From assembly GCA_030646915.1 (NCBI GenBank), contig JAUSKT010000001.1:1-63434 (forward strand): a stretch of 63,434 nt of DNA, read 5' to 3'. The DNA is from a bacterium (GTDB lineage: Bacteria > Patescibacteriota > Minisyncoccia > UBA6257 > 02-FULL-45-10c). Positions 1,117-49,823 of this stretch are shown here, piece by piece. Each line of letters begins with the position of its first letter. Position 1 is the stretch's first letter. Under the pieces are notes generated by a model, which did not search any database, was not told the origin of the DNA, and was given only the letters and a program-made list of their open reading frames with translations. Position numbers and translations under genes: made by a program.

Positions 1117-1200
1117 TGTTATTCGTGCTAATAAGCTAACACCTAAGAAGCTAGAACAATTTTCCTAAGAAGCTAATCCCTAAAAAGCTAAGAAGCTTAA

Positions 1201-2409
1201 TTAAATTCCCCCAACCAGCTGATAAATCGGCACAATGACGGACAAAGCAATTGTTCCGATTAAAACACCAATAAACAATAAAAGCGCCGGTTCAATAAAA
1301 GCTACCAAAGTTTTCACCGCGGTATCTACCTCCGATTCATAAAAAATTGAAAGAGTTTTTAAAATATCTTCAATGTGGCCTGCCTTCTCCGAAACTGCGA
1401 TTAAATTAGTAACAACTAATGGAAAAGCTGGCTCTCTCCGGAAAGCATCTCCGATAGTCAGTCCTTTAGAAATTCCCTCTCTGGAAATATTCCTCAAGCT
1501 TTTGGCTAATACATCAGAACCGACAGCATCCGCGGTAATTTCTAAAGAATGAGTAATTGGCAAACCAGCTCTCATTAAGGAAGAAAAAGTTGAAGTGAAG
1601 CGCTGAAGCGCCAATTGCGCCAGAACATTTTTTACAACCGGAAGATGGGTTCCTAAAAGCGCCACTAATTTCCTCCCCGAATAAGATTTCGTCAAGAAAT
1701 ACCACCCGCCAATAACTAAAAAGGCTATAAGAGGAAAAACAATCAGGACATTAGCATTCAAAAAAAGCCCTACCGAAAAAACAATTCTTGAGAAAATCGG
1801 GGGCTTGATCCCGGTTGATAAAAATACATTGGCAATTTTCGGCAAAGCAAAAGTTACCAAGAGTAAAAGCATTAGGAAGGACATAACCAGCAATATTATC
1901 GGATAAATCAAAGCAGCCTGGACTTTATTTTTTAAAGCTTGTTCTTTATCCAAAGAAACGCTTAAATTATCTAAAACCTCGGTAAGATTTCCGGAAGCCT
2001 CGCCGGCCTTGATTAAATTGATAAAAATCTGGGAAAAATATTTAGGATATTTTTCAAAAGTAATATAAAAAGGATTGCCTTTCTCTAAATTAGTTTTTAT
2101 TTCAATTAATAGCGCCTTTAAAACCGGTTTATCAAAATCATTAACTAAAATATCAATAGCTTTAAAAAGATCCGTGCCGGCTTTTAACATCAAAGAAAGG
2201 TATCTGGTTAAAAATACCTTATCAGAAATACTGATAGATTGGCCAAAAAATTTTATTCCACCAATATCCGCGGAACGGTTCAATTTAATAGAAACTGGGC
2301 GCAATCCCTTGCCGGCTAAAAATTGCAAAACCTCAGAAGAATCTTGCGCATCTACATCTCCTTCCAAAATTTTTCCGTTAAGTTGTGATGCAATGTAATG
2401 AAATTTCAT
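1201..2409 (-). CDS. pilC: Type II secretion system F / PilC family inner-membrane platform protein
   Basis: 402 aa with two GspF-type repeats and three TM segments, next to a GspE ATPase and pilins. Confidence 0.9.
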   Translation of the reverse strand: MKFHYIASQLNGKILEGDVDAQDSSEVLQFLAGKGLRPVSIKLNRSADIGGIKFFGQSISISDKVFLTRYLSLMLKAGTDLFKAIDILVNDFDKPVLKALLIEIKTNLEKGNPFYITFEKYPKYFSQIFINLIKAGEASGNLTEVLDNLSVSLDKEQALKNKVQAALIYPIILLVMSFLMLLLLVTFALPKIANVFLSTGIKPPIFSRIVFSVGLFLNANVLIVFPLIAFLVIGGWYFLTKSYSGRKLVALLGTHLPVVKNVLAQLALQRFTSTFSSLMRAGLPITHSLEITADAVGSDVLAKSLRNISREGISKGLTIGDAFRREPAFPLVVTNLIAVSEKAGHIEDILKTLSIFYESEVDTAVKTLVAFIEPALLLFIGVLIGTIALSVIVPIYQLVGGI

Positions 2410-2410
2410 T

Positions 2411-2450
2411 TTAGCTTGTTAGCTTGTTAGCTTGTTAGCTTGTTAGTTTA
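2411..2450. repeat. Tandem octamer repeat (TTAGCTTG x4 plus degenerate TTAGTTTA) directly upstream of the pilC start
   Basis: Read directly: ttagcttg ttagcttg ttagcttg ttagcttg ttagttta. Confidence 0.9.
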
Positions 2451-2495
2451 GGAACTAAATTTCCTAAAAACTAAGAAGCTACAACCTAAAAAGCT

Positions 2496-4202
2496 TTACT
2501 CTCGTATAACTCTTAATACTTCTTCAATAGTAGTCATTCCCCGCTCCGCTTTTCTAAGCCCGTCTTCGAACATAGTAATTAATCCTTTTTTTCGAGTTAA
2601 CTCACGCAAACCGTCTAAAGAAAAATCCGGCTTTATGATGTAGCTCCTAATCTCATCATCAAAACTCAAAGTTTCAAAAATGCCGATTCTTCCTTTTAAT
2701 CCGCCATGGCCGCAAGAACCGCAACCCTTGCCCCTGTAAAATAATTTTGGCGCTTTATACTTAGAAGCTAAGCCTAAATCTTCAATCTGCTTTTTTATTA
2801 ATTCTAACAGAGAATCAGTGGGCTTATAAGATTCAATGCAGTCGGCGCAAATTTTTCCAACCAGCCTCTGAGCTAAGACTAAATTCAAAACCGCCGCTGC
2901 CAAAAACGGCTGGACTTTCATATCAAATAATCTTGGTACGGCCGTAGGCGCGTCATTAGTGTGGACTGTTGATAAAAGTAAATGCCCGGTCAATGCCGCA
3001 TTGACGGAAATTTCCGCAGTTTCTTCATCTCTGATTTCTCCGACTAAAATAATATTCGGATCTTGCCGCAATAAAGACCGGAGAGCGCTTGCAAAAGTAA
3101 TTCCAGCCGCCGGATTAATCTGGGTCTGATTCACGTATTTAATATTGTATTCAATAGGATCTTCAACTGTGACAACATTCACTTCTGTCTTATTTAAAAC
3201 ATTTAAAACCGAGTAAAGAGTAGTGCTTTTACCGGAGCCGGTCGGTCCGGAAACTAAAATCATACCGAAAGTCTTCTTAATATTATCCATTAAAATCTTC
3301 ACCGTATCCTCGAGCATTCCCAGTTCTTCAAAAGATAATGGCCTTTGAGTTGCGGATAATAAACGCATTTCGGTTTTTTCTCCGTAAAAAGTCGGAATGA
3401 TGGATACGCGGATATCAATATAATCTTTTCCTAAATTTTGCCTGAACCGGCCGTCTTGCGGACGGGAATGTTCATCTAATTTCATGCCAGCCAATAATTT
3501 AATCCTTGCGGTAATCGCTGAATGCACCTCCTTCGGCAATCGCATAATTTCTTTCAAAACTCCATCAATTCGATATCGCACTAATAATGATTCCTCTAAA
3601 ATCTCCAAATGAATATCCGAAGACCTGGAGGCCAGCGCATAAGCAATTAAATTATCAACAATTGCGACAATCGGCAGATCTTCCGCTGATTCTTTCGTGC
3701 CGGAAGCTTTAGAGTTAATAGAAGCATTGACACCTTCTTCAATAATTTTCCTGAAATCTTCCGCGCCTCCTTTGGAATAAAGAGACAAGCCGATATTCAA
3801 ATCTTCTGGAGATGCAAGATATGGCTTAATTTCTGTCTTAAGATAGCGCTTTATAAATTCTACAGTTTCCAAATTGCTCGGATCCTCCATCGCCACTCCC
3901 AGCATGCCATCTGCTTCTTGTTGGAAAACCACCACCCGCTTATTCCGCGATATTTCTTCCGGTAAAAGATGCAATACTTTTTCATCAATGGAGCGGAAAG
4001 ATAAAGCGGCTTTAGCCACGCCGAAATAAGAAGCCAAGAGATCGCTGAAATAATCTTTAGTAATAACCCCCCTAGAAATTAATATATCAGGCGCATTTTG
4101 TCCCATTCTGCCGGCTTCGGAAACTATCTTATCAAAATCTTCGGCGCTGATAAGCCCTTCATTAACTATCAGATCTTTTAATTTTTCATTAGGAATTTGC
4201 AT
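2496..4202 (-). CDS. pilB: Type IV pilus assembly ATPase (GspE/PilB family)
   Basis: 568 aa with an N-terminal MshEN-like domain, Walker A GPTGSGKST, a VGEIRD Asp box and a C-terminal CxxC...CxxC cluster (CADC...CGSC). Confidence 0.93.
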   Translation of the reverse strand: MQIPNEKLKDLIVNEGLISAEDFDKIVSEAGRMGQNAPDILISRGVITKDYFSDLLASYFGVAKAALSFRSIDEKVLHLLPEEISRNKRVVVFQQEADGMLGVAMEDPSNLETVEFIKRYLKTEIKPYLASPEDLNIGLSLYSKGGAEDFRKIIEEGVNASINSKASGTKESAEDLPIVAIVDNLIAYALASRSSDIHLEILEESLLVRYRIDGVLKEIMRLPKEVHSAITARIKLLAGMKLDEHSRPQDGRFRQNLGKDYIDIRVSIIPTFYGEKTEMRLLSATQRPLSFEELGMLEDTVKILMDNIKKTFGMILVSGPTGSGKSTTLYSVLNVLNKTEVNVVTVEDPIEYNIKYVNQTQINPAAGITFASALRSLLRQDPNIILVGEIRDEETAEISVNAALTGHLLLSTVHTNDAPTAVPRLFDMKVQPFLAAAVLNLVLAQRLVGKICADCIESYKPTDSLLELIKKQIEDLGLASKYKAPKLFYRGKGCGSCGHGGLKGRIGIFETLSFDDEIRSYIIKPDFSLDGLRELTRKKGLITMFEDGLRKAERGMTTIEEVLRVIRE

Positions 4203-4229
4203 GAAATTAGCTTTTTAGGTTGTAGCTTA

Positions 4230-4646
4230 TTAGCTTTTTAGGGTTGCAAGCATCTTATTCAACATTTTCATTACTTCAAGTAATAATCTATCTACATCAG
4301 TATAATTCAAGTTTTTACTAAAAGATAATCTTTTAGATATTTCAATTTGAGTTTCTAATTCTGCGCCAGAACCGTAAGCAATAACCAAAAAATGTCTAAA
4401 ATCCTTTCTAGTGCCACGCTTTCTGCCCTCCGCAATATTAGAAGAAATCGAAACAGCTGATCTTCTCATTTGAGAAATAAGACCATATAACTCTGATTTA
4501 GGATATTGTTCAGTCAATTCATAAACTGCTACTACTAACTCAATAGATCTTTGCCATACAATTAAATCTTTATAACTAACTAGCTTGTAGCCAGTAGCTG
4601 GTAGCTTTTTAGGGTCAATATTTAATTTTTCTTCTGTCGTATTCAT
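4230..4646 (-). CDS. Four-helix-bundle protein (23S rRNA intervening-sequence protein / Avd-like family)
   Basis: DLIVWQRSIELVVAVYELTEQYPKSELYGLISQMRRSAVSISSNIAEGRKRGTRKDFRHFLVIAYGSGAELETQIEIS matches the family pattern W-Q..(x)..P..E.y.L..Q.rRsa.Si..NIAEG. It carries a 25-aa N-terminal extension shared with the pilin-like gene. Confidence 0.75.
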   Translation of the reverse strand: MNTTEEKLNIDPKKLPATGYKLVSYKDLIVWQRSIELVVAVYELTEQYPKSELYGLISQMRRSAVSISSNIAEGRKRGTRKDFRHFLVIAYGSGAELETQIEISKRLSFSKNLNYTDVDRLLLEVMKMLNKMLATLKS

Positions 4647-4713
4647 TGTTATTCATGCTAATAAGCTAATGCCTAAAACCTAATTCCTTCCTAACAAGCT
4701 AATCCCTAAAAAG

Positions 4714-5301
4714 CTAGAACTTCAATATCTGCCACCACGGAAGCATCTCTAGCCATCTACTTATAAGTATAGTAGAAATCGCTACCGGCAACCAAAGATA
4801 ATATAAAGACAATCGTTTTTTAGGCTCAAAATAAATAGAGTGGATTGCAGATAATAAAACACTGGTCAACAGCAATAAAATCAAATAAAAAAGCCAATTC
4901 GGATGCCCGACTAAAAAAAGTGCAGTTGCGAAAATATAGGTTTCCGATTCTTCAAAAAATCTTTCTTCATATTTTTTATTGAAACTCTTGGCACTCCAAA
5001 AAAACAGCAAGCTGAAAAATAAAGATAAAATATATGGATTAAAAAATCTGGTTCGCGCATAAAAAATTATATAATCAAAATTCTGATAAGGAGGCAAAAG
5101 CAATTTTCCTATATCGTCATTTTTCCAAAGCTGGTATTGATCCCAGGATAAATAAAAAGCATAGGAAAAAATAAAAATAACCGATATCCAGAATACTAAC
5201 TTACCAAAAAACCCGCTTCGAAAAATTTCAAAACGGGTTTTTGTGCCCAGTAGTTGCAAGCCAAAAATAATACAAAGAATTATTAAGGCGATATTAACCA
5301 T
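4714..5301 (-). CDS. Polytopic membrane protein of unknown function inside the pilus locus
   Basis: 195 aa with about 5 hydrophobic segments. No GxGD/A24 peptidase motif is seen. Confidence 0.55.
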   Translation of the reverse strand: MVNIALIILCIIFGLQLLGTKTRFEIFRSGFFGKLVFWISVIFIFSYAFYLSWDQYQLWKNDDIGKLLLPPYQNFDYIIFYARTRFFNPYILSLFFSLLFFWSAKSFNKKYEERFFEESETYIFATALFLVGHPNWLFYLILLLLTSVLLSAIHSIYFEPKKRLSLYYLWLPVAISTILISRWLEMLPWWQILKF

Positions 5302-5310
5302 TCTTAAAGA

Positions 5311-5889
5311 CTAAAGATCTAAGCCATTGTCAGTTCCAACTTCGTACATAGCTGGCTTATTGCCACCATCGGTTGCTTCTTTATTATCAGCACCAGTAGT
5401 ATATCGGTCACTTTCCAATTTGGCATCTAATTCAAAAGTCTTGCTAGTAGTATTGTCATTGGCATAAGAATAGAAATAGGTGCCATTATTAGTTGGATCA
5501 ACTGGCAATACTGATAAAGCTGGGCCGCCTGGAACTGAAGCGAAATTAACTGGAACCCAACCGTTTGAATCAACTGCTCTTGAAGTTACTAAAGTAGAAC
5601 CCCCACTATGACGGCCACCGCAATTAGCAGCCAAAGCATCTAAATCTGTATCGCCATCATTATAAACATAACAGTTTGCTGTAACTCCCATGGTTGGACT
5701 TGAGGCCGTAGAAACGTAAAGCCCTAAAGCATTACGCAATACTCCTATATCTTGAATTCTGGTTGTGTCTCGAGCTTGAGCGAAAAGCTGAGCTGGGTTT
5801 AATACTAAAACCGATACGGCGCCCAAAACCGCCAAAATACCGATAACGATTACTAATTCTAATAAGGTAAAACCTTTTTGTTTTGACAT
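5311..5889 (-). CDS. Type IV pilin (candidate major pilin)
   Basis: MSKQKG|FTLLELVIVIGILAVLGAVSVLVL is a short leader plus the class III signal. 192 aa. Confidence 0.88.
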   Translation of the reverse strand: MSKQKGFTLLELVIVIGILAVLGAVSVLVLNPAQLFAQARDTTRIQDIGVLRNALGLYVSTASSPTMGVTANCYVYNDGDTDLDALAANCGGRHSGGSTLVTSRAVDSNGWVPVNFASVPGGPALSVLPVDPTNNGTYFYSYANDNTTSKTFELDAKLESDRYTTGADNKEATDGGNKPAMYEVGTDNGLDL

Positions 5890-6057: not shown

Positions 6058-6423
6058 CTAAACTAAAAAACTTTTGATTTTAGTGACTAAATCGTCAATA
6101 GAAATTTTGGCTTTGATTACATAATCCACTGCGCCAAGTTCTTTGCCTTTTGCCACATCTGATTCCTGCCCTAAATTGGAAATAATCAAGACGGGAATTT
6201 TGGAAATTTGCGGGTCGGATTTCATATCGCCCAATAATTCAAATCCGGATTTATCCGGCAAAATAATATCCAGCAAAACCAAATCCGGCCGGTTATCAGA
6301 CATCGCTTTTATAACCTCGCTGCCTTTTTTTACAGAAATAACTTCCAAACCCTCCTTCTTCAAACGGTTTCCTAAAAGCGAAGAAAGAAATGGATCGTCT
6401 TCAATTAATAAAATCTTTTTCAT
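6058..6423 (-). CDS. Single-domain response regulator (CheY/PilH-like receiver)
   Basis: 121 aa: ILLIEDD...DLVLLDIILPDKSGFELL...PVLIISN...K, with the receiver acidic pocket and conserved Lys. Confidence 0.9.
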   Translation of the reverse strand: MKKILLIEDDPFLSSLLGNRLKKEGLEVISVKKGSEVIKAMSDNRPDLVLLDIILPDKSGFELLGDMKSDPQISKIPVLIISNLGQESDVAKGKELGAVDYVIKAKISIDDLVTKIKSFLV

Positions 6424-6545
6424 AGTGCGATACCAATATACGAATACATGCTAATGATACGAATACTACTAATTATAATATTAAAATGATTTAATATCAA
6501 AATAATACAAGCTAAAAAACCTTCCAGTTCTAACAAAACTATTTA

Positions 6546-6591
6546 CTCAAATTTTTGAGCTATTGACAAGATTTATATAGTGTGCTATAAT
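6546..6591 (+). promoter_or_regulatory. Sigma70-type promoter (TTGACA-17-TATAAT) preceded by the inverted repeat CTCAAATTTTTGAG
   Basis: -35 at 6563-6568, -10 at 6586-6591, IR at 6546-6559. Confidence 0.65.
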
Positions 6592-6597
6592 ACTTAT

Positions 6598-6754
6598 TAT
6601 GAGAGTGGTTGGCGATGATAGCTCTGCCTAGCTATAAGCTGGGTTCGACTATAAGCTGGGTTTTTCCCCTAATCGCGGCAATCCCGCGAAACACCCAGCG
6701 GCCATTCTCACGTTCTTTCCTTAAAGCCACTGCTAACGCGGTGGCTCTTTTTTT
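6598..6754 (+). ncRNA. Candidate ~155-nt small RNA of unknown family (promoter to intrinsic terminator, no credible ORF)
   Basis: Consensus promoter upstream. Closing stem GAGAGTGG/CCATTCTC, inner stem GCTGGGT/ACCCAGC, hairpin CGCGG-caatc-CCGCG. Terminator GCCAC...GTGGC plus a T-run at 6726-6754. Confidence 0.45.
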
Positions 6755-6774
6755 ATTTAAAAATCCAAAGTATG

Positions 6775-6819
6775 CTCAAATTTTGAGCTATTGCCACTGA
6801 AGAAAATTAAGATTACTAT
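6775..6819 (+). promoter_or_regulatory. Second copy of the IR-plus-promoter unit (CTCAAATTTTGAG, TTGCCA-17-TACTAT) driving the 84-aa ORF
   Basis: Near-duplicate of 6546-6568: CTCAAAT(T)TTTGAGCTATTG(A/C)CA. Confidence 0.5.
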
Positions 6820-6851
6820 TCATAATAGCTTATTACCAGTGAGAAAATAGA

Positions 6852-7106
6852 ATGAAAATACAGCCTGATGTTATTTCGGTGCAGATGCGACTGAAACAAA
6901 ATACTATTAAAAAAGTAGAAAAAATATCTAAAATATTTTCTAGTGAAAATCGGGCAGATGCAGTGAGAACTTCTATAGATATAGCCGACTTAGTTACAAA
7001 AACAATTGCTAGCGGATCTCGGGTTATGATTTATCCTCCTTGGTGGAAATTTTGGAAAAGTCCACAAAGACTCATTATACCTTCTCTAAACCAACCGCAA
7101 CTTTAA
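6852..7106 (+). CDS. Small hypothetical protein, possibly ribbon-helix-helix DNA-binding
   Basis: 84 aa. The N-terminal ISVQMRLKQNTIKKVEKISKIF...RADAVRTSIDIA has a strand-helix-helix pattern. It has its own promoter and terminator. Confidence 0.5.
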   Translation: MKIQPDVISVQMRLKQNTIKKVEKISKIFSSENRADAVRTSIDIADLVTKTIASGSRVMIYPPWWKFWKSPQRLIIPSLNQPQL

Positions 7107-7124
7107 CAAGTGGCGGTTTTTTTT
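7094..7124 (+). terminator. Intrinsic terminator after the 84-aa ORF
   Basis: ACCGC...GCGGT stem followed by T8. Its tail TTTTTTATTTAAAAATCCAAA repeats the tail of the sRNA terminator at 6747-6769. Confidence 0.6.
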
Positions 7125-7170
7125 ATTTAAAAATCCAAAAATTAAACACCCCATCAATCCAACCAACAAG

Positions 7171-7343
7171 AAAGTTTTACTTGTTTATCGTGCAGTAACT
7201 ACGGAGGCGCTAAAAGCTTGGTATTTTACTTAACCAAAAAAATTACTTTTTGGTTAAGTAAAATTTTTAGCGCTGAGGGGTAGGAGCCGCTTACCGCAGG
7301 AGCAAGCGGACTCCGGTACTGTCAGATAAATAAGTAAAACTTT
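7171..7343. repeat. Nested palindromic ~173-bp element downstream of the 16S processing stem
   Basis: Outer 19-bp IR AAAGTTTTACTTGTTTATC / GATAAATAAGTAAAACTTT (1 mismatch). Inner long hairpin GCGCTAAAA...TTTTAGCGC (7208-7272) and hairpin GGAGCCGCTT...AAGCGGACTCC. Confidence 0.7.
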
Positions 7344-7612
7344 AAAAGAAAACTTTCTAGTTATCCCAACCTTATGCGGCTGCTTATTCAGCAACGAGCA
7401 AATCGAGACTTAAAGCTCCTCGATCAAAACTTTTCTATATGCTTTCGCATATTATCGTTCTTAATCAAATATAAATATTTGATTTTTGTTTAATTGATCC
7501 ACGCACAGCTTCCGCTACGCGTGCCTTGTTACGACTTCTTCCATGTCACCGATCTTACCCTAAGCCCAGCGAACTGGGATTTCAGGTATTACCGGCTCCC
7601 CTGAAGTGACGG

Positions 7613-8495
7613 ATTGAACTCATTGGGTTAATGGTTCGTTCCCATTCCGACTTAATATCGGAACTTCGACTTTCCATATCGAAGCTGAACATACGGATTT
7701 CCCGTATTCAGCGAGCCCGGTATTGATGCATCTGCTTTTTTAGTTGCTTAATTTTTTCTATTCCTTTTTTATCCCAATGCTTCTTTTTTAATACCAATTT
7801 AATAATCTTTTTAAACAAAAGATAATCATAAATTTTCTTACTTTGAAGCTTATGTCGGTCAAAAAATGGAATAATCACACCGCAAATCTCTTTTAAATTG
7901 GTAGTTTCGTAACGATAACAATTATGGTGGTTAGGCCTCCTATCCAATTGGAAAGAAATCCTGCCAACCTTAAAAAATTCTTTTACTTTTTTAAGCAAAA
8001 ATAAATCATCGTCACGCAACTTAATGTAATAATGGCATTCAATTCTATAATTCTTTGACTGCCATTTAGATTGCGGCGGCTTAATATATATAGTGAAGCT
8101 TCCTTCACCATCAGTTAAGCCAACTATATATTCTGCAGATAACATAAATATTATTCCGGTTAGGCCCTTCCCGAATACATAAACATTCTATGCTCCGGTA
8201 CTATGGCACTAGCTGACTTCCTAAAAATCTTTTCTAACCCGATTTTTTAGGATCTCTTTGGGTCACTTATTTTACTTTTCCTAACATCCCGACTTTATAC
8301 TTAAATTTTTGAACTTCCTGACTGACCGCCCGCAGGAGTCGTTCAATTTTATCTTAACATGGGCTGTTATTTGCCTCAAGCCCTCCATCCAAATTATTAC
8401 TAATGTGGACTGCTATTTTTGGCTACGCTCCGATAGACAATCGGAGGAGTGGATTTTAACTACTTAGTAAAACAAGCTGCCAAACACAGTTATTT
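7613..8495 (-). mobile_element. Intervening sequence (probable self-splicing intron) inside the universally conserved 1392-1407 segment of 16S, carrying a homing-endonuclease ORF
   Basis: Exon junction GTACTCACCGCC | ... | CCGTCACTTCAGG, compared with canonical GYACACACCGCCCGTCAC. Boundaries are good to +/- 2 nt. Confidence 0.75.
7708..8145 (-). CDS. LAGLIDADG homing endonuclease (single-motif, homodimer type)
   Basis: 145 aa with N-terminal EYIVGLTDGEGSF. Same strand as the rRNA and inside the insertion. Confidence 0.9.
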   Translation of the reverse strand: MLSAEYIVGLTDGEGSFTIYIKPPQSKWQSKNYRIECHYYIKLRDDDLFLLKKVKEFFKVGRISFQLDRRPNHHNCYRYETTNLKEICGVIIPFFDRHKLQSKKIYDYLLFKKIIKLVLKKKHWDKKGIEKIKQLKKQMHQYRAR

Positions 8496-10307: not shown

Positions 10308-10335
10308 AGTATATTCATATTTCAAAAACTGTCAA
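10308..10335 (-). promoter_or_regulatory. Candidate rRNA promoter (TTGACA-16-TATACT on the minus strand), ~450 nt upstream of mature 16S
   Basis: Minus strand: GGGGGTTGACAgtttttgaaatatgaaTATACT. An alternative A-tract-rich promoter region lies at 9960-10015. Confidence 0.45.
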
Positions 10336-10405
10336 CCCCCACACCTAATGAGTTTTGGTTCGCTATAAGCAAACGAAATTTAACTAAACTCATTAGGTGT
10401 GGGGG
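10336..10405. repeat. 20-bp perfect inverted repeat CCCCCACACCTAATGAGTTT / AAACTCATTAGGTGTGGGGG with a 30-nt loop
   Basis: Read directly. Related C5/G5-clamped hairpins occur at 47299-47341 and 28500-28526. Confidence 0.85.
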
Positions 10406-10485
10406 TCAATAGGTGCTATAGCCTAACAAAAACTCGCTAAAAAGCGAGTTTTTGTTAATAAAAATTCTCGAGAATTTTTAACGCT

Positions 10486-11750: not shown

Positions 11751-11828
11751 CCAGGAAGTGAAACTTCGGTGGCTATACGCGATCAGCCACGACTTTATGT
11801 CGTGGCTAACCGAAGTTCTACTTCCTGG
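11751..11828. repeat. Compound hairpin: 20-bp imperfect outer IR enclosing a 9-bp perfect hairpin
   Basis: CCAGGAAGTGAAACTTCGGT ... AGCCACGAC-tttat-GTCGTGGCT ... ACCGAAGTTCTACTTCCTGG. Confidence 0.8.
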
Positions 11829-11880
11829 CAAACAAAAAACCTGATATTAATCAGGTTACAAAAATTTATTACTTAACTAT

Positions 11881-12342
11881 TTATAATTCTACGAGCTCAA
11901 TATTTTGATAATCTTCCGGATTTTTTAAATTGCTTTTCCAATTGCTGAACTGCCAATTGGCTGAACCGCGAACAATCCTCCCCAAACGAATCTCTTGAGG
12001 TAGCCATTTTGGGAGGAGAATAGCGACTGATTCGGTCATTTTTTCAAATTTAATCACAAAATCGCGAACCTCATTAACTTTATGCGGATCCCTAGCTGCT
12101 CCTGCCAAAGATAGTTTGCGAGTCATTTTTCTAATCTCTAACAATTCTAAAACCGTAATCCGGGTAAAACCCATTATATCTTGCTCGCGCTTCAGCCAAG
12201 ACTCCAAAGATCGCCGAGCAGCAGTTTCGTTTTTGCCAGTTAATTTTTTAGAATCAATAGTAGTTTCGGTGCCAGCGCGGTCCGGGTTTTCTTCTACTCT
12301 ACGATATTTAACCCAATATTCTCGAACTTGCTTGCTGGCCAT
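11881..12342 (-). CDS. Hypothetical protein (153 aa)
   Basis: Own TTGACA promoter (12401-12406), overlapping back-to-back with the rpmE promoter. Terminator at 11833-11857. Confidence 0.6.
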   Translation of the reverse strand: MASKQVREYWVKYRRVEENPDRAGTETTIDSKKLTGKNETAARRSLESWLKREQDIMGFTRITVLELLEIRKMTRKLSLAGAARDPHKVNEVRDFVIKFEKMTESVAILLPKWLPQEIRLGRIVRGSANWQFSNWKSNLKNPEDYQNIELVEL

Positions 12343-16020: not shown

Positions 16021-16048
16021 ATATATTTAATTATACCAAGAAAATAGG

Positions 16049-26852: not shown

Positions 26853-26951
26853 TATAATTAAAATAAATTCATTATTTCCCGACCTTTTAATAATTACTTT
26901 CTATTATAACATAAATAAACTTCAACTAAACGAACCTTTCATTTACTTGAG

Positions 26952-27083
26952 AACATTGCGGAGGCAGAGTTACAAAACTTTGAGCGAGTAGTAAAAATTT
27001 CGGGATACCCAGGAATGAAATGACTAGGGTGAAATTTTTACGCCATGAGCGAATTAGTTTTGTTTCTGCCGGAGCAGCGTTTG
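26952..27083 (+). ncRNA. Candidate structured RNA / repeat element, copy 1 (antisense to the flanking genes)
   Basis: Shares ordered blocks AACATTGCGGAGGC, TCGGGATACCCAGGAA, TGACTAGGGTGA, ATGAGCGAAT and GGAGCAG with the reverse complement of 49563-49698. Two stems show compensatory changes. Confidence 0.55.
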
Positions 27084-27103
27084 AAAGGAATGAAAGGTGA
27101 GTG

Positions 27104-27970
27104 TCACTCATGTTCCGATTTAATCCGTCCTCCAAGCGTCCGTAATTCCGATAAAGCAATTTTTGCTTCTTCTTTTGTCGGCGGTTTGCCGTGCCACATG
27201 TAATCATTTTCCATAAAACTTACTCCTTTACCGGGAATAGTATGCGCAATAATTATTGTTGGCCTTTCATAAATCGCTTTTGCTTCATTAACTGCCGAAA
27301 CAAATTCCAAAATATCATGGCCATTTACTTCAATCACATGCCAGTTAAATGCTTCGTATTTTTCCCGAAGCGGTTCAAGCGGCATTACCTCTTCCGTAAA
27401 CCCGTCAATCTGGATATTATTCCGATCCATAATCACCGTCAGATTATTTAATTTGGATTTCTGCTTGCCGGCAAACATAATCGCTTCCCATGTATTTCCT
27501 TCTTGATGTTCGCCATCAGAAGTTAAGCAATAAACCCGATTTTTCTTTTTATCCAATCGCGCTGCAAGCGCCATTCCAATAGCTTGGGAAATTCCAGAAC
27601 CCAGCGGTCCTGAAGTAGTTTCAATTCCTGGTAAAGAATTCCGATGAGGATGCCCCTGGAGCCTTGAATCAAGTTTCCTGAGCGTAAAAAGTTCTTCCAT
27701 TGGAAAATATCCAGCATTAGCTAGCGTCGCATAAAGCACCGGACAAATATGGCCATTAGAAAGCACTACCCGATCCCTTTCCGGCCAGCTGGGATTTTTC
27801 GGATTATGATTTAAAATATGAAAATAAAGCGCGGTAAAAATATCCGCCATCCCAAGCGGTCCGGCAGAATGCCCGGATTTTGCTTCCACCAGCATCTCAA
27901 TAATATCCTGCCGGATCTTATTCGCCATCTCTTCCAGAAATTTTAATTTATTTTCGTGTAAATCCGCCAT
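27104..27970 (-). CDS. Transketolase, N-terminal (TPP-binding) subunit
   Basis: GHSAGPLGMADI...LSNGH...TSDGEHQEGNTWEA. Confidence 0.9.
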   Translation of the reverse strand: MADLHENKLKFLEEMANKIRQDIIEMLVEAKSGHSAGPLGMADIFTALYFHILNHNPKNPSWPERDRVVLSNGHICPVLYATLANAGYFPMEELFTLRKLDSRLQGHPHRNSLPGIETTSGPLGSGISQAIGMALAARLDKKKNRVYCLTSDGEHQEGNTWEAIMFAGKQKSKLNNLTVIMDRNNIQIDGFTEEVMPLEPLREKYEAFNWHVIEVNGHDILEFVSAVNEAKAIYERPTIIIAHTIPGKGVSFMENDYMWHGKPPTKEEAKIALSELRTLGGRIKSEHE

Positions 27971-27991: not shown

Positions 27992-28243
27992 CTAAATATA
28001 AACATCTTTACGATGCCCAATTTTTAAAATAATAATTTTATCTTTATCTACATCAAAAATAACCCGATAATCGCCAATCCGAAAACGATATTCACCCTCG
28101 TAATAATCTGTTAATTTTTCAGCAAATTTTAACAGGTTATTTTGAGAAACATAAAAACGCATCTTCTGAGCGATGCGTTTTTGAATTAATTTTGGTAAGG
28201 CCGCTAACTGCTTTGCAGCTTTTTCGGTATAAAAAACCTGCAT
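27992..28243 (-). CDS. relE: RelE/ParE-family type II toxin
   Basis: 83 aa: ...YRFRIGDYRVIFDVDKDKIIILKIGHRKDVY. Confidence 0.8.
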   Translation of the reverse strand: MQVFYTEKAAKQLAALPKLIQKRIAQKMRFYVSQNNLLKFAEKLTDYYEGEYRFRIGDYRVIFDVDKDKIIILKIGHRKDVYI

Positions 28244-28247
28244 ATCG

Positions 28248-28439
28248 CTAAATGCCTAGTTTCTTAAAAAGCTTTTCCTGTTCCACTAAACGTCCCTTAG
28301 CCGCTTCTTTCCGCGCTTCCCGGATATCCGTTAAATATCCAAGGCGCTTCAAGGCTTTTTGAAACTGCTTTTCCATATTTTTTAACCGTTGATATTCCCC
28401 CCTGCTAATAATTATTTTATTTAGCGTTGAAACTGACAT
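28248..28439 (-). CDS. Putative cognate antitoxin (63 aa)
   Basis: Lies 4 nt upstream of the toxin. Small, helical and charged. Confidence 0.55.
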   Translation of the reverse strand: MSVSTLNKIIISRGEYQRLKNMEKQFQKALKRLGYLTDIREARKEAAKGRLVEQEKLFKKLGI

Positions 28440-40678: not shown

Positions 40679-40705
40679 TATCCGCTGAATACTTAGAATT
40701 ACTAT

Positions 40706-40745
40706 CCACCTCCTTATATTTGCTATAGCAAATATAAGGAGGTGG
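40706..40745. promoter_or_regulatory. 40-bp perfect palindrome CCACCTCCTTATATTTGC-TATA-GCAAATATAAGGAGGTGG
   Basis: Read directly. Sister palindrome at 41383-41420. Confidence 0.85.
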
Positions 40746-40779
40746 AATTTAAAATTTTAAAAAAACAATTAATAAGTTA

Positions 40780-41382: not shown

Positions 41383-41420
41383 TACCTCCTTATACTTGCT
41401 ATAGCAAGTATAAGGAGGTA
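41383..41420. promoter_or_regulatory. 38-bp perfect palindrome TACCTCCTTATACTTGC-TATA-GCAAGTATAAGGAGGTA overlapping a candidate promoter (TTGCTA-17-TAATAT)
   Basis: Read directly, 40 nt upstream of the PaaX-like ATG. Confidence 0.85.
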
Positions 41421-45018: not shown

Positions 45019-45031
45019 AATTTTTTGAAAA

Positions 45032-49385: not shown

Positions 49386-49520
49386 AATTTTTATCTTTTA
49401 TTTATTTTCATTCCGTTATCTTAAGAAACGGAGTGAAACGACCTAATTTATTTTTCCGACCTATTTTATTAATTTTTAATAATGCTATTAGTATAAAATT
49501 ATTTGGATATTAGGAGATGT

Positions 49521-49529: not shown

Positions 49530-49562
49530 TGTGGATAACTTTTTCATTCGCTTATTATTCTC

Positions 49563-49698
49563 GCCAACGACTGCTCCAGCTTTAACAAATAATATTCGCT
49601 CATATACGGAAATTTATCACCCTAGTCATTCTTCCTGGGTATCCCGATAAATTTCCTATTCTCTCATTTATTTGCAATAAAGCCTCCGCAATGTTGGC
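49563..49698 (-). ncRNA. Candidate structured RNA / repeat element, copy 2 (same orientation as the flanking genes)
   Basis: Its reverse complement aligns block-for-block with 26952-27083. 11-bp stem GGAAATTTATC/GATAAATTTCC and 6-bp stem GGCTTT/AAAGCT. Confidence 0.55.
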
Positions 49699-49823
49699 TC
49701 GAATAACCAAGCTCACTCAGCTTATTTTTTTTAAAGCTCCGTATTTGCCATACAACAAATAGTTATAGCTCGTTCTTAATAAGAGGCGATATTTATCTTT
49801 TAGTCTAATAAAATTAGCTTCGC

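Follow-up and report, generated by a model that had tools for sequence, protein, structure and literature searches.

Genomes of the candidate phyla radiation (CPR, or Patescibacteria) are among the most compact known, and to our knowledge their non-coding content is almost uncharted. The ERIC sequences of enterobacteria, in the account of Wilson and Sharp (2006), are reportedly imperfect palindromes of ~127 bp. Miniature inverted-repeat transposable elements (MITEs) and the palindromic elements of Rickettsia are small non-coding palindromic insertions that persist in reduced genomes and can land inside other genes or introns. REPINs are doublets of repetitive extragenic palindromic (REP) sequences that form hairpins and are mobilized by the tyrosine transposases known as RAYTs (PMC3116915, PMC3337134), with compensatory changes across the mobile hairpin (PMC3116915). 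Here we describe two related non-coding stretches in a contig of 63,434 nt from a bacterium of the Patescibacteriota (JAUSKT010000001.1 of assembly GCA_030646915.1; the whole contig is called the window below). Each folds into a single long hairpin, or rod, and we put at roughly 0.55 the probability that they are copies of a new family of small non-coding, non-autonomous, structure-dependent mobile hairpin elements of Paceibacteria (Parcubacteria/CPR). No description of an element of this kind in CPR bacteria was found in the literature.

Like a REPIN, the rod is a short, non-autonomous, variably present intergenic unit that forms one long single-strand hairpin, has frequent compensatory changes across that hairpin and shows no clear target duplication of the classic kind. 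It differs as follows: REPINs have invariant ends and a variable spacer, whereas the rod has variable ends and an invariant apex; GTAG is not conserved in the rod, which has GAGTAG, GAATAG or GAGCAG at one internal position only; the rod is no symmetric doublet (its apex is asymmetric, its GA motifs run in the same sense and its halves are not equivalent); it occurs in 2–3 copies per genome, against tens to hundreds of REPINs; and it shows no replication-strand bias. With ERIC sequences, the rod shares a whole-length imperfect palindrome that is intergenic, lies in either orientation, is present or absent between related genomes and keeps its structure by compensatory change. It has no sequence similarity to ERIC (no match in 5,426 E. 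coli genomes), belongs to a different host phylum and is longer, with GA-motif loops and a conserved three-way apex. The rod also resembles the MITEs and Rickettsia elements in the properties given above. Unlike MITEs, it lacks conserved terminal inverted repeats related to an insertion sequence (IS), and no IS end matched in plasmid and phage collections; unlike either class, it was never found in frame within a protein gene. Judged from the sequences compared, the architecture is atypical beside REPINs and ERIC, with a conserved apex, variable ends and no clear terminal repeats or target duplications.

Two copies of a rod-shaped element in one contig

The two copies (labelled W1 and W2; other loci and relatives compared are L001–L025) are 79% identical over ~135 nt in a pairwise alignment. 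A sequence-only reading of the window had pointed to both stretches, and all the conserved blocks that it listed are present. So are the two helices that it saw maintained by different sequences: an 11-bp stem (GTAAAAATTTC/GAAATTTTTAC in copy 1 versus GGAAATTTATC/GATAAATTTCC in copy 2) in which all four changed positions are compensated, and a 6-bp stem (GGCAGA/TCTGCC versus GGCTTT/AAAGCT) with three compensated changes and one G–U pair. Also confirmed are its symmetric GGA/GGA internal loop and TGC/GCA pairing, and copy 1 is indeed antisense to its neighbours and copy 2 co-oriented with them. That reading missed an 8-bp helix (ACAAAACT/AGTTTTGT in copy 1 versus GCAAATAA/TTATTTGT in copy 2) and gave too short an element: full units measure ~175–190 nt and include an outer stem of 10–19 bp (ACCTTTCATTT/GAATGAAAGGT in copy 1; TTATTC, GCTTG/TAAGC, GAATAA in copy 2). 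The complete units each fold as a single rod, at −64.9 kcal/mol (z ~ −6.9) for copy 1 and −59.3 kcal/mol (z ~ −6.4) for copy 2.

A covariance model (R1) built from 14 homologs matches the cores of copy 1 and copy 2 with 142 bits (E 2.5e-32) and 143.1 bits (E 1.3e-32), respectively. No third copy in the window rose above noise with this model, and a 3-mismatch search for the two longest blocks returned only the two sites. The G9 tract noted beside copy 2 (C9 on the strand of the element) is native to the site, as L020 has TTATCCACACCCCCC without the element. Copy 1 had been placed in an insertion that splits the tkt genes, which overstates what was inserted: the 84-amino-acid open reading frame (ORF) between tktN and tktC is native to the locus, because it is conserved in relatives, and only the ~190-nt element has been added.

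A fold conserved on one strand

In the core alignment (A3; 14 sequences, 141 columns, 41 pairs and 570 pair cells), 97.7% of the cells hold standard pairs and 20 of the 41 pairs show double compensatory changes (81 cells). None of 500 column shuffles reached any of these measures, and sliding the partners by 1–3 columns lowered pairing to 32–48%. On a longer alignment (A2), RNAalifold gave 32 of 51 pairs as compensated, including the outer stem, and all 16 units adopt the single-rod fold. The apical pairing (CCC/GGG, AG/CU) is invariant among the members derived from the search pattern (below), so there is no covariation signal there; the apex is also kept in L009b, a copy found by the model only.

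The internal ‘loops’ carry UGAGCGA on both arms, in the same 5′-to-3′ sense, a feature that the sequence-only reading had also missed. GAGCGA is conserved in all 14 sequences, and a further GAGCGA-type pair lies near the base of the rod, often with another at the termini. Aligned as 5′-GAGCGA-3′ against 3′-AGCGAG-5′, these arms give G·A, A·G, G–C, C–G, G·A and A·G, that is, tandem G·A pairs around a GC/CG step, so that the rod would be nearly continuous on the sense strand; on the opposite strand the GAGCGA positions become pyrimidine mismatches. The sense strand is also favoured by the excess of G–U over A–C cells (18 versus 4), and its fold is better than that of the antisense strand by 4–25 kcal/mol in each of the 16 units, although the antisense strand folds stably too (−41 to −87 kcal/mol). 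The pair bias, the fold energies and the same-sense GAGCGA motifs together point to a single strand of sense polarity, either RNA or single-stranded DNA, as the putative functional form. Like structured RNAs in general, the element has a secondary structure backed by covariation on one strand.

A family in groundwater Paceibacteria

We searched for homologs with the pattern GGGATACCCAGG-N(2-12)-GACTAGGG in 185,579 species genomes and in JGI/ENA metagenomes. The species genomes contain six real members (two each in a Harrisonbacteria contig and a Paceibacter genome, and one each in a further Harrisonbacteria genome and a Patescibacteria metagenome-assembled genome) plus one chance match in a cyanobacterium; eight more members came from metagenomes of the Hainich aquifer and a Ga02095xx sample. 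No pattern-found member overlaps the window. Two further copies, both in L009 and beyond the reach of the pattern, were detected by the covariance model alone: that at 11768–11926 has a 31-nt hairpin in the variable slot of the apex and retains the apical domain, and the other lacks GGGAUACCCAGGAA. At least 16 distinct members of the family are thus known from genomes and metagenomes of groundwater Paceibacteria/Harrisonbacteria, with ~2–3 copies per genome and about two in each of three genomes. None of the outcomes that the earlier reading had named as refuting it occurred: there are many more homologs, and covariation is strong well beyond the two initial copies.

The impression that the element fits no known RNA family held up, as no Rfam 15 family or IS end matches it. 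At gathering thresholds, Rfam 15 identified 16S rRNA only in the whole window; searches of both copies at E < 10 returned noise only (12–19 bits), and a scan of 13 homologous loci returned rRNA and tRNA only. With blastn, the element matched no plasmid, no phage and none of the 5,426 complete E. coli genomes, and two pattern scans of IMG/VR viral contigs were negative as well.

Filled and empty sites

Filled and empty sites were compared at four loci and differ by the presence or absence of the element, which forms a discrete insertion in very short spacers between genes, as expected of a mobile repeat. The tkt site is empty in seven relatives (L016–L019 and L023–L025; tktN 85–92% identical), in which the stop codon is followed by 4–30 nt, the TGTTATAAT promoter of a conserved 73–84-amino-acid ORF and then tktC; the window has ~190 extra nt exactly between the tktN stop codon and TGTTATAAT. 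No orthologous filled tkt site was found in the closest relatives, and seven empty sites against one filled site favour insertion rather than loss. The site of copy 2 is empty in L020, L021 and L022, where the spacers measure 117–182 nt and L020 retains the adjacent TTATCCACACCCCCC. Conversely, L012 has a type-A copy between genes that lie 13 nt apart in the window (flanking proteins 86% and 85% identical), and L015 carries one downstream of its L25 gene, at a place where the spacer in the window measures 28 nt. Near-identical type-A units occur at three unrelated loci (W1, L001 and L012), and the covariance model found no copies in ~105 kb of related sequence. Together, these comparisons show turnover of the element within the time over which the species diverged; it behaves as a small mobile repeat and not as a fixed RNA gene.

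The outer stems are complementary within each copy and wholly different between subfamilies; the stem of copy 1 (P0) recurs in the type-A copies L001 and L012 at other loci. Recombination between copies is shown by three chimaeras: L013 combines a type-A outer arm on the 5′ side with a type-B one on the 3′ side, L008 is type B in its outer and type A in its inner parts, and L011 mixes three types. At the site of copy 2, GAGTGA and AAGCGA flank the unit where L020 has a single GAGCGA, and a duplication of 5–6 bp (GAGCGA) is possible. At the tkt site, comparison with L023 and L024 reveals no target duplication and no such motif in those relatives, and between L012 and the window AGCGA stands against CAGCTA at the insertion site. 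GAGCGA is not enriched genome-wide (24 observed versus 22 expected). The sequence-only reading had raised a MITE as the alternative; the filled and empty sites support a MITE-like mobile element, but the variable ends and the lack of a consistent target duplication do not fit a textbook MITE.

In one of the empty relatives, L025, an alternative tktN 3′ end (22 codons and a stop codon) is duplicated downstream of the present stop codon at 1747–1874, which looks like a recombination or integration scar. The empty spacer that follows holds three AGCGA motifs in the sense of the element, and these may be a footprint.

Two other origins for the copies were considered and rejected. The genes between the three copies of L009 are housekeeping genes (SecDF, peptidyl-prolyl isomerase, ABC transporter), contrary to a composite transposon, and insertion into a pre-existing terminator hairpin does not fit empty sites that lack a hairpin and type-A copies that share an outer stem at three loci.

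Genomic contexts

The neighbours of the copies differ without any relation between loci, and no rule governs the orientation of the element. Copy 1 adjoins tktN and a small ORF, and copy 2 a Wzy/TPR gene and a gene for a hypothetical protein. Elsewhere the neighbours are a CCA-adding enzyme and a DUF559 protein (L001), a sugar transferase and a polysaccharide-synthesis protein (L012), rpsP and khpA–trmD (a KH-domain gene; L005), and a type IV secretion system coupling protein and EF-P (L006/L009a). Further copies lie ~20 nt after tRNA-Phe (L008), convergent with tRNA-Lys (L009b), beside DksA (L013) or L25 (L015), near 23S–5S (L004) and near an rve-type transposase (L014), with a terminator and another palindrome between the transposase and the rod.

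The downstream gene is convergent at six or more loci, so the element is not a leader. A riboswitch or other cis-regulatory leader was rejected on this ground and because the gene functions are unrelated and a promoter follows the element in L005 and L003. Scans with promoter and terminator consensus sequences found none flanking either window copy, and no U-tract follows them. The earlier label, a candidate novel structured RNA, is apt for a novel, conserved, strand-specific and neighbour-independent element; the status of an RNA gene is not borne out, given the absence of a consensus promoter or terminator and the mixed orientation to flanking transcription.

The window is a single replichore (GC skew is negative throughout, and 57 of 63 ORFs lie on the minus strand) with one rod in each orientation. 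It is the whole 63,434-bp contig; the rods are inverted and 22.5 kb apart, and gene order relative to L020 is not inverted.

Table 1 Positions of the rod copies, their structural parts, empty sites, region A repeats and TGTTATAAT motif sites
Feature	Sequence	Position	Strand	Remarks
Copy 1, full inserted unit	Window	26912..27103	+	Start ~26912 or 26923; A-rich 5′ leader (~26912–26929), then rod
Copy 1, flanks	Window	27104–27106; 26903–26911		tktN stop codon (27104–27106, minus strand); conserved TGTTATAAT promoter (ATTATAACA at 26903–26911)
Copy 1, conserved core	Window	26946..27081	+	Covariance-model match
Copy 1, outer stem P0, 5′ arm (ACCTTTCATTT, CTT)	Window	26934..26948	+	Pairs with 27085–27098; minimum-energy fold; other subfamilies differ yet stay complementary
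Copy 1, outer stem P0, 3′ arm	Window	27085..27098	+	Minimum-energy fold
Copy 1, P1 5′ arm (GAAC, TTGC)	Window	26951..26959	+	Pairs with 27074–27082 (GCAG, GTTT)
Copy 1, GGA of GGA/GGA loop	Window	26960..26962	+	Partner 27071–27073; central A invariant in 14 sequences
Copy 1, P2 5′ arm (GGCAGAG)	Window	26963..26969	+	Pairs with 27064–27070; double compensatory changes in 6/7 pairs across the family
Copy 1, P3 5′ arm (ACAAAACT)	Window	26972..26979	+	Pairs with 27056–27063 (AGTTTTGT); 3 pairs switch in 5–7 of 14 sequences
Copy 1, inner GA loop, 5′ side (TTGAGCGAGTA)	Window	26980..26990	+	GAGCGA opposite GAGCGA at 27042–27055
Copy 1, inner GA loop, 3′ side (CGCCATGAGCGAAT)	Window	27042..27055	+	
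Copy 1, P4 5′ arm (GTAAAAATTTC)	Window	26991..27001	+	Pairs with 27031–27041; 100% of cells paired, double changes in 7/11 pairs
Copy 1, apical domain (GGGATACCCAGGA, variable insert, GACTAGGGT)	Window	27002..27030	+	
Copy 2, full unit	Window	49547..49719	−	Absent between the same two genes in L020, L021, L022
Copy 2, conserved core	Window	49567..49701	−	Covariance-model match
Copy 2, P4 5′ arm (GGAAATTTATC)	Window	49646..49656	−	Pairs with 49608–49618
Copy 2, apical domain	Window	49619..49645	−	
Empty site, 13-nt spacer between sugar transferase and polysaccharide-synthesis genes	Window	45019..45031	.	L012 has a type-A copy, ~195 extra nt
Empty site, 28-nt spacer after L25 gene	Window	16021..16048	.	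L015 has a family-B element and a rod
Region A	Window	7165..7350	−	
Region A	L009	6655..6822		
Region A	L015	1085..1262		
Region A	L002	7195..7365	−	
TGTTATAAT motif site	Window	26885..26911		
TGTTATAAT motif site	Window	49420..49465		
TGTTATAAT motif sites	L016–L025			tkt spacers
TGTTATAAT motif site	L020	9925..9960		

A possible mode of movement

If the two stretches are mobile hairpin elements, the sense strand would fold into the rod either as single-stranded DNA during mobilization or as a transcript. The rod would offer a protein three dyad-symmetric GAGCGA/GAGCGA tandem-G·A sites, about two helical turns apart, together with the GGA/GGA loop and the invariant apical junction (GGGAUACCCAGGA, variable hairpin, GACUAGGGU). 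A trans-acting enzyme encoded elsewhere in the genome could recognize these features and copy or move the unit without an obvious target duplication, by analogy with the RAYT or IS200-type single-strand transposases that propagate REPIN hairpins. If a copy could propagate only while its rod stayed intact, the covariation would be explained. The position of an inserted rod, with a stop codon or terminator on one side and the next promoter on the other, is probably why it is tolerated, and it may secondarily act as an RNA hairpin, in 3′-end protection or as a substrate of RNase III.

Several observations weigh against mobility of this kind. None of the copies has a transposase, recombinase or reverse transcriptase linked to it; all-against-all BLAST of the flanking ORFs revealed no recurrent partner protein, and a Pfam scan of ~60 flanking ORFs, within ~300 kb of fragments, found no RAYT (Y1 transposase) gene. 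No consistent target-site duplication emerged across the sites compared. The ends, where a transposase would usually bind, are the most variable part of the element and the apex and GA sites the most conserved, the reverse of REPINs and MITEs, and the invariance of the apex is partly an artefact, because the search pattern selects for it. Genomes carry very few copies. An IS200-like mechanism with strict dependence on the lagging strand is disfavoured, because both orientations occur in one replichore, and at some sites it is possible that the element was lost by deletion instead of gained by insertion.

The family preserves its ~185-nt rod through compensatory evolution, moves among intergenic spacers of only a few nucleotides, recombines between its copies and can occupy an rRNA intron. 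It provides a marker of recent genome dynamics in CPR bacteria; the inverted copies ~22 kb apart in the window are a possible substrate for rearrangement or inversion. A conserved centre, variable ends and same-sense GA motifs are a poor fit to substrate recognition by known transposases, so that a partner enzyme could reveal a new mechanism of single-strand recognition. For annotation, the element accounts for otherwise puzzling intergenic insertions in conserved operons, such as tktN–tktC and rpsP–khpA.

Alternative explanations

It is unlikely, in our judgement, that the copies are instead independently transcribed genes of a trans-acting small-RNA family, in paralogous pairs per genome (compare 6S-1/6S-2 and CsrB/CsrC) and relocated by recombination, with the rod as a protein-binding scaffold or sponge that acts by way of its GA sites, GGA sites and apex. 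The strong covariation, the sense-strand bias, the invariant apex with variable stems and the presence of about two copies in each of three genomes would all be at home in such a family. An upstream terminator precedes several copies (L003, L004 and L006), good −10-like boxes stand just upstream of a few (L015, TATATAAT; L003, TATAAT), and in L005 a perfect TTGACA-17-TATAAT promoter follows the element, which is hence not the leader of that gene. The CAGGAAG and GGA motifs resemble CsrA-type sites, a likeness that is only a lead. Yet such RNA genes would have to be present or absent at four loci among close relatives and missing from the ~105 kb of related sequence, one copy sits within a group I intron, a convergent stop codon lies just a few nucleotides from another, and the window copies have no conserved promoter or terminator. 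The likeness to 6S RNA (RF00013), which extends to a rod fold of ~180–190 nt with internal loops and two copies per genome, as in Bacillus, ends at the details: neither 6S RNA nor any other Rfam family matched even at E < 10, the ‘bubbles’ are self-pairing GA motifs and not the open central bubble of 6S RNA, conservation lies in the apex and not in the bubble flanks, and the rod shows insertion/absence polymorphism where 6S RNA would be a stable single-locus gene.

We also regard it as unlikely that the rod works for the host in cis as an RNA hairpin (a bidirectional terminator or insulator, a stabilizer of mRNA 3′ ends or an RNase III processing site) that spread like ERIC or REP and is now kept for that role, a view that is compatible with a mobile element. 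Five copies (W1, L001, L012, L006/L009a and L009b) lie 0–7 nt from the 3′ end of a convergent gene or tRNA, each of the remaining copies is bounded by a terminator or stop codon and by the next promoter, and both strands fold stably. But the spacers are so short that any insertion adjoins a stop codon, relatives manage without the element at the same sites, no U-tract follows the window copies, and a simple terminator needs neither an invariant 25-nt apex nor same-sense GA motifs.

More speculatively, and quite improbably, the rod could be a functional RNA and the mobile unit in one, which would make it a gene for a structured non-coding RNA that, although it encodes no protein, spreads within Paceibacteria genomes and from one to another. 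Its invariant apex (which resembles the 790-loop of 16S rRNA, GAUACCCUGG) and its three dyad-symmetric tandem-G·A sites would then recruit a host protein, perhaps a ribosome- or rRNA-binding factor, or a nuclease or recombinase. If true, this would be a mobilization or decoy mechanism without a described counterpart.

A copy in a 16S intron and a second repeat family

Group I introns in rRNA are common in CPR bacteria, and one copy of the rod lies in such an intron. L002, a Harrisonbacteria locus that is syntenic with positions 1192–5884 of the window, has a 1,213-nt insertion (6246–7458, minus strand) in its 16S gene at approximately E. coli position 788 (the 790 loop), within GGAU|UAGAUACCC. 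The insertion matches Intron_gpI (42.5 bits, E 5e-9), and its R and S elements and terminal G were read directly. It holds an 83-amino-acid basic ORF that has no Pfam match and no homolog elsewhere in the material compared, and the rod has the P9-region hairpins on one side and the 3′ splice site on the other. A 20-bp long-range helix in the intron encloses region A, a second, unannotated family of structured repeats of ~165–185 nt that is Y-shaped, with a closing stem and two hairpins. In region A, 27 of 46 pairs are compensated across four sequences, and no Rfam family matches; the repeat lies directly 5′ of the rods in L009 and L015 and inside the 16S intron in L002, and its reverse complement has rod-like GAGCGA-type termini.

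That the rod is a peripheral domain or derivative of CPR rRNA group I introns, with the solo copies as intron remnants or escaped modules, is very improbable. Besides the position of the L002 copy and the shared company of region A, 11 of 13 positions of the apex (GAUACCCAGGAAG) match the 16S sequence GAUACCCUGGUAG just 3′ of the intron insertion site. A match of this quality is within chance expectation for a comparison of 16S with the element, all other copies lie outside rRNA with no intron core nearby, and we read the L002 intron as simply one more harmless landing site for the rod.

The 16S gene of the window has an apparent insertion of its own. Just 3′ of the annotated 16S match (7500–8443, minus strand; ORF 7708–8145, minus strand) lies a LAGLIDADG homing-endonuclease gene (PF00961, E 1e-19), and positions 7500–7616 give a further match that resembles the 3′ end of small-subunit rRNA; this arrangement makes it probable that an intervening sequence of ~830 nt interrupts the gene near the 3′ end. 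A perfect 21-bp inverted repeat (ACCCCCACACCTAATGAGTTT, 30 nt, AAACTCATTAGGTGTGGGGGT) is present at 10335–10406, upstream of the 16S gene.

Candidates set aside

An integron attC-like single-strand recombination site, which the folded hairpin with internal bulges and the conserved AAC/GTT pairing near its base (GCCAAC/GTTGGC in type B) might suggest, is effectively refuted by failed core-site and array tests: the RYYYAAC/GTTRRRY cores are not matched (AGCCAAC, GTTGGCG, GAGAAC/GTTTGA), the unit has 175–190 nt against 57–141 nt for attC sites, cassette arrays are absent, no intI lies nearby, and the copies are solitary among housekeeping genes with a conserved apex.

A small ORF was rejected, since other copies have ACG or GCG in place of the apical ATG and covariation takes an RNA-like form, as was a template/variable repeat pair of a diversity-generating retroelement, since the differences between copies are compensatory and not adenine-specific. 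The spacing of 3 bp between bulge and tandem G·A pairs does not fit the geometry of a K-turn. T-box, TPP, ykkC, hammerhead, hairpin ribozyme, signal recognition particle RNA and RNase P were considered and have no Rfam support, and an origin from phages or plasmids found no matches in plasmid, phage and viral-contig collections.

Other features of the window

A conserved extended −10 box, TGTTATAAT, followed ~15 nt on by AAAGGTCG or TAGGTCG, occurs upstream of several genes (sites in Table 1) and, with its downstream motif, may be a lineage-specific promoter-proximal or leader motif. A weak match to lysM-TM7 in a permissive Rfam search depends on this AGGUCG as well.

Directly upstream of tktN, toxin–antitoxin pairs differ between relatives in what appears to be a variable hotspot: the slot holds ParE and a 63-amino-acid partner in the window (27992–28439, minus strand) and MNT/HepT in L024 (146–752) and L025 (2–883).

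Two perfect palindromes of 19–21 bp (TCCACCTCCTTATATTTGCTA|TAGCAAATATAAGGAGGTGGA and a variant), at 40705–40746 and 41383–41420, each lie 40–65 nt upstream of a minus-strand gene. In both, a Shine–Dalgarno-like GGAGG pairs with CCTCC, and the palindromes could be operators or translation-control hairpins.

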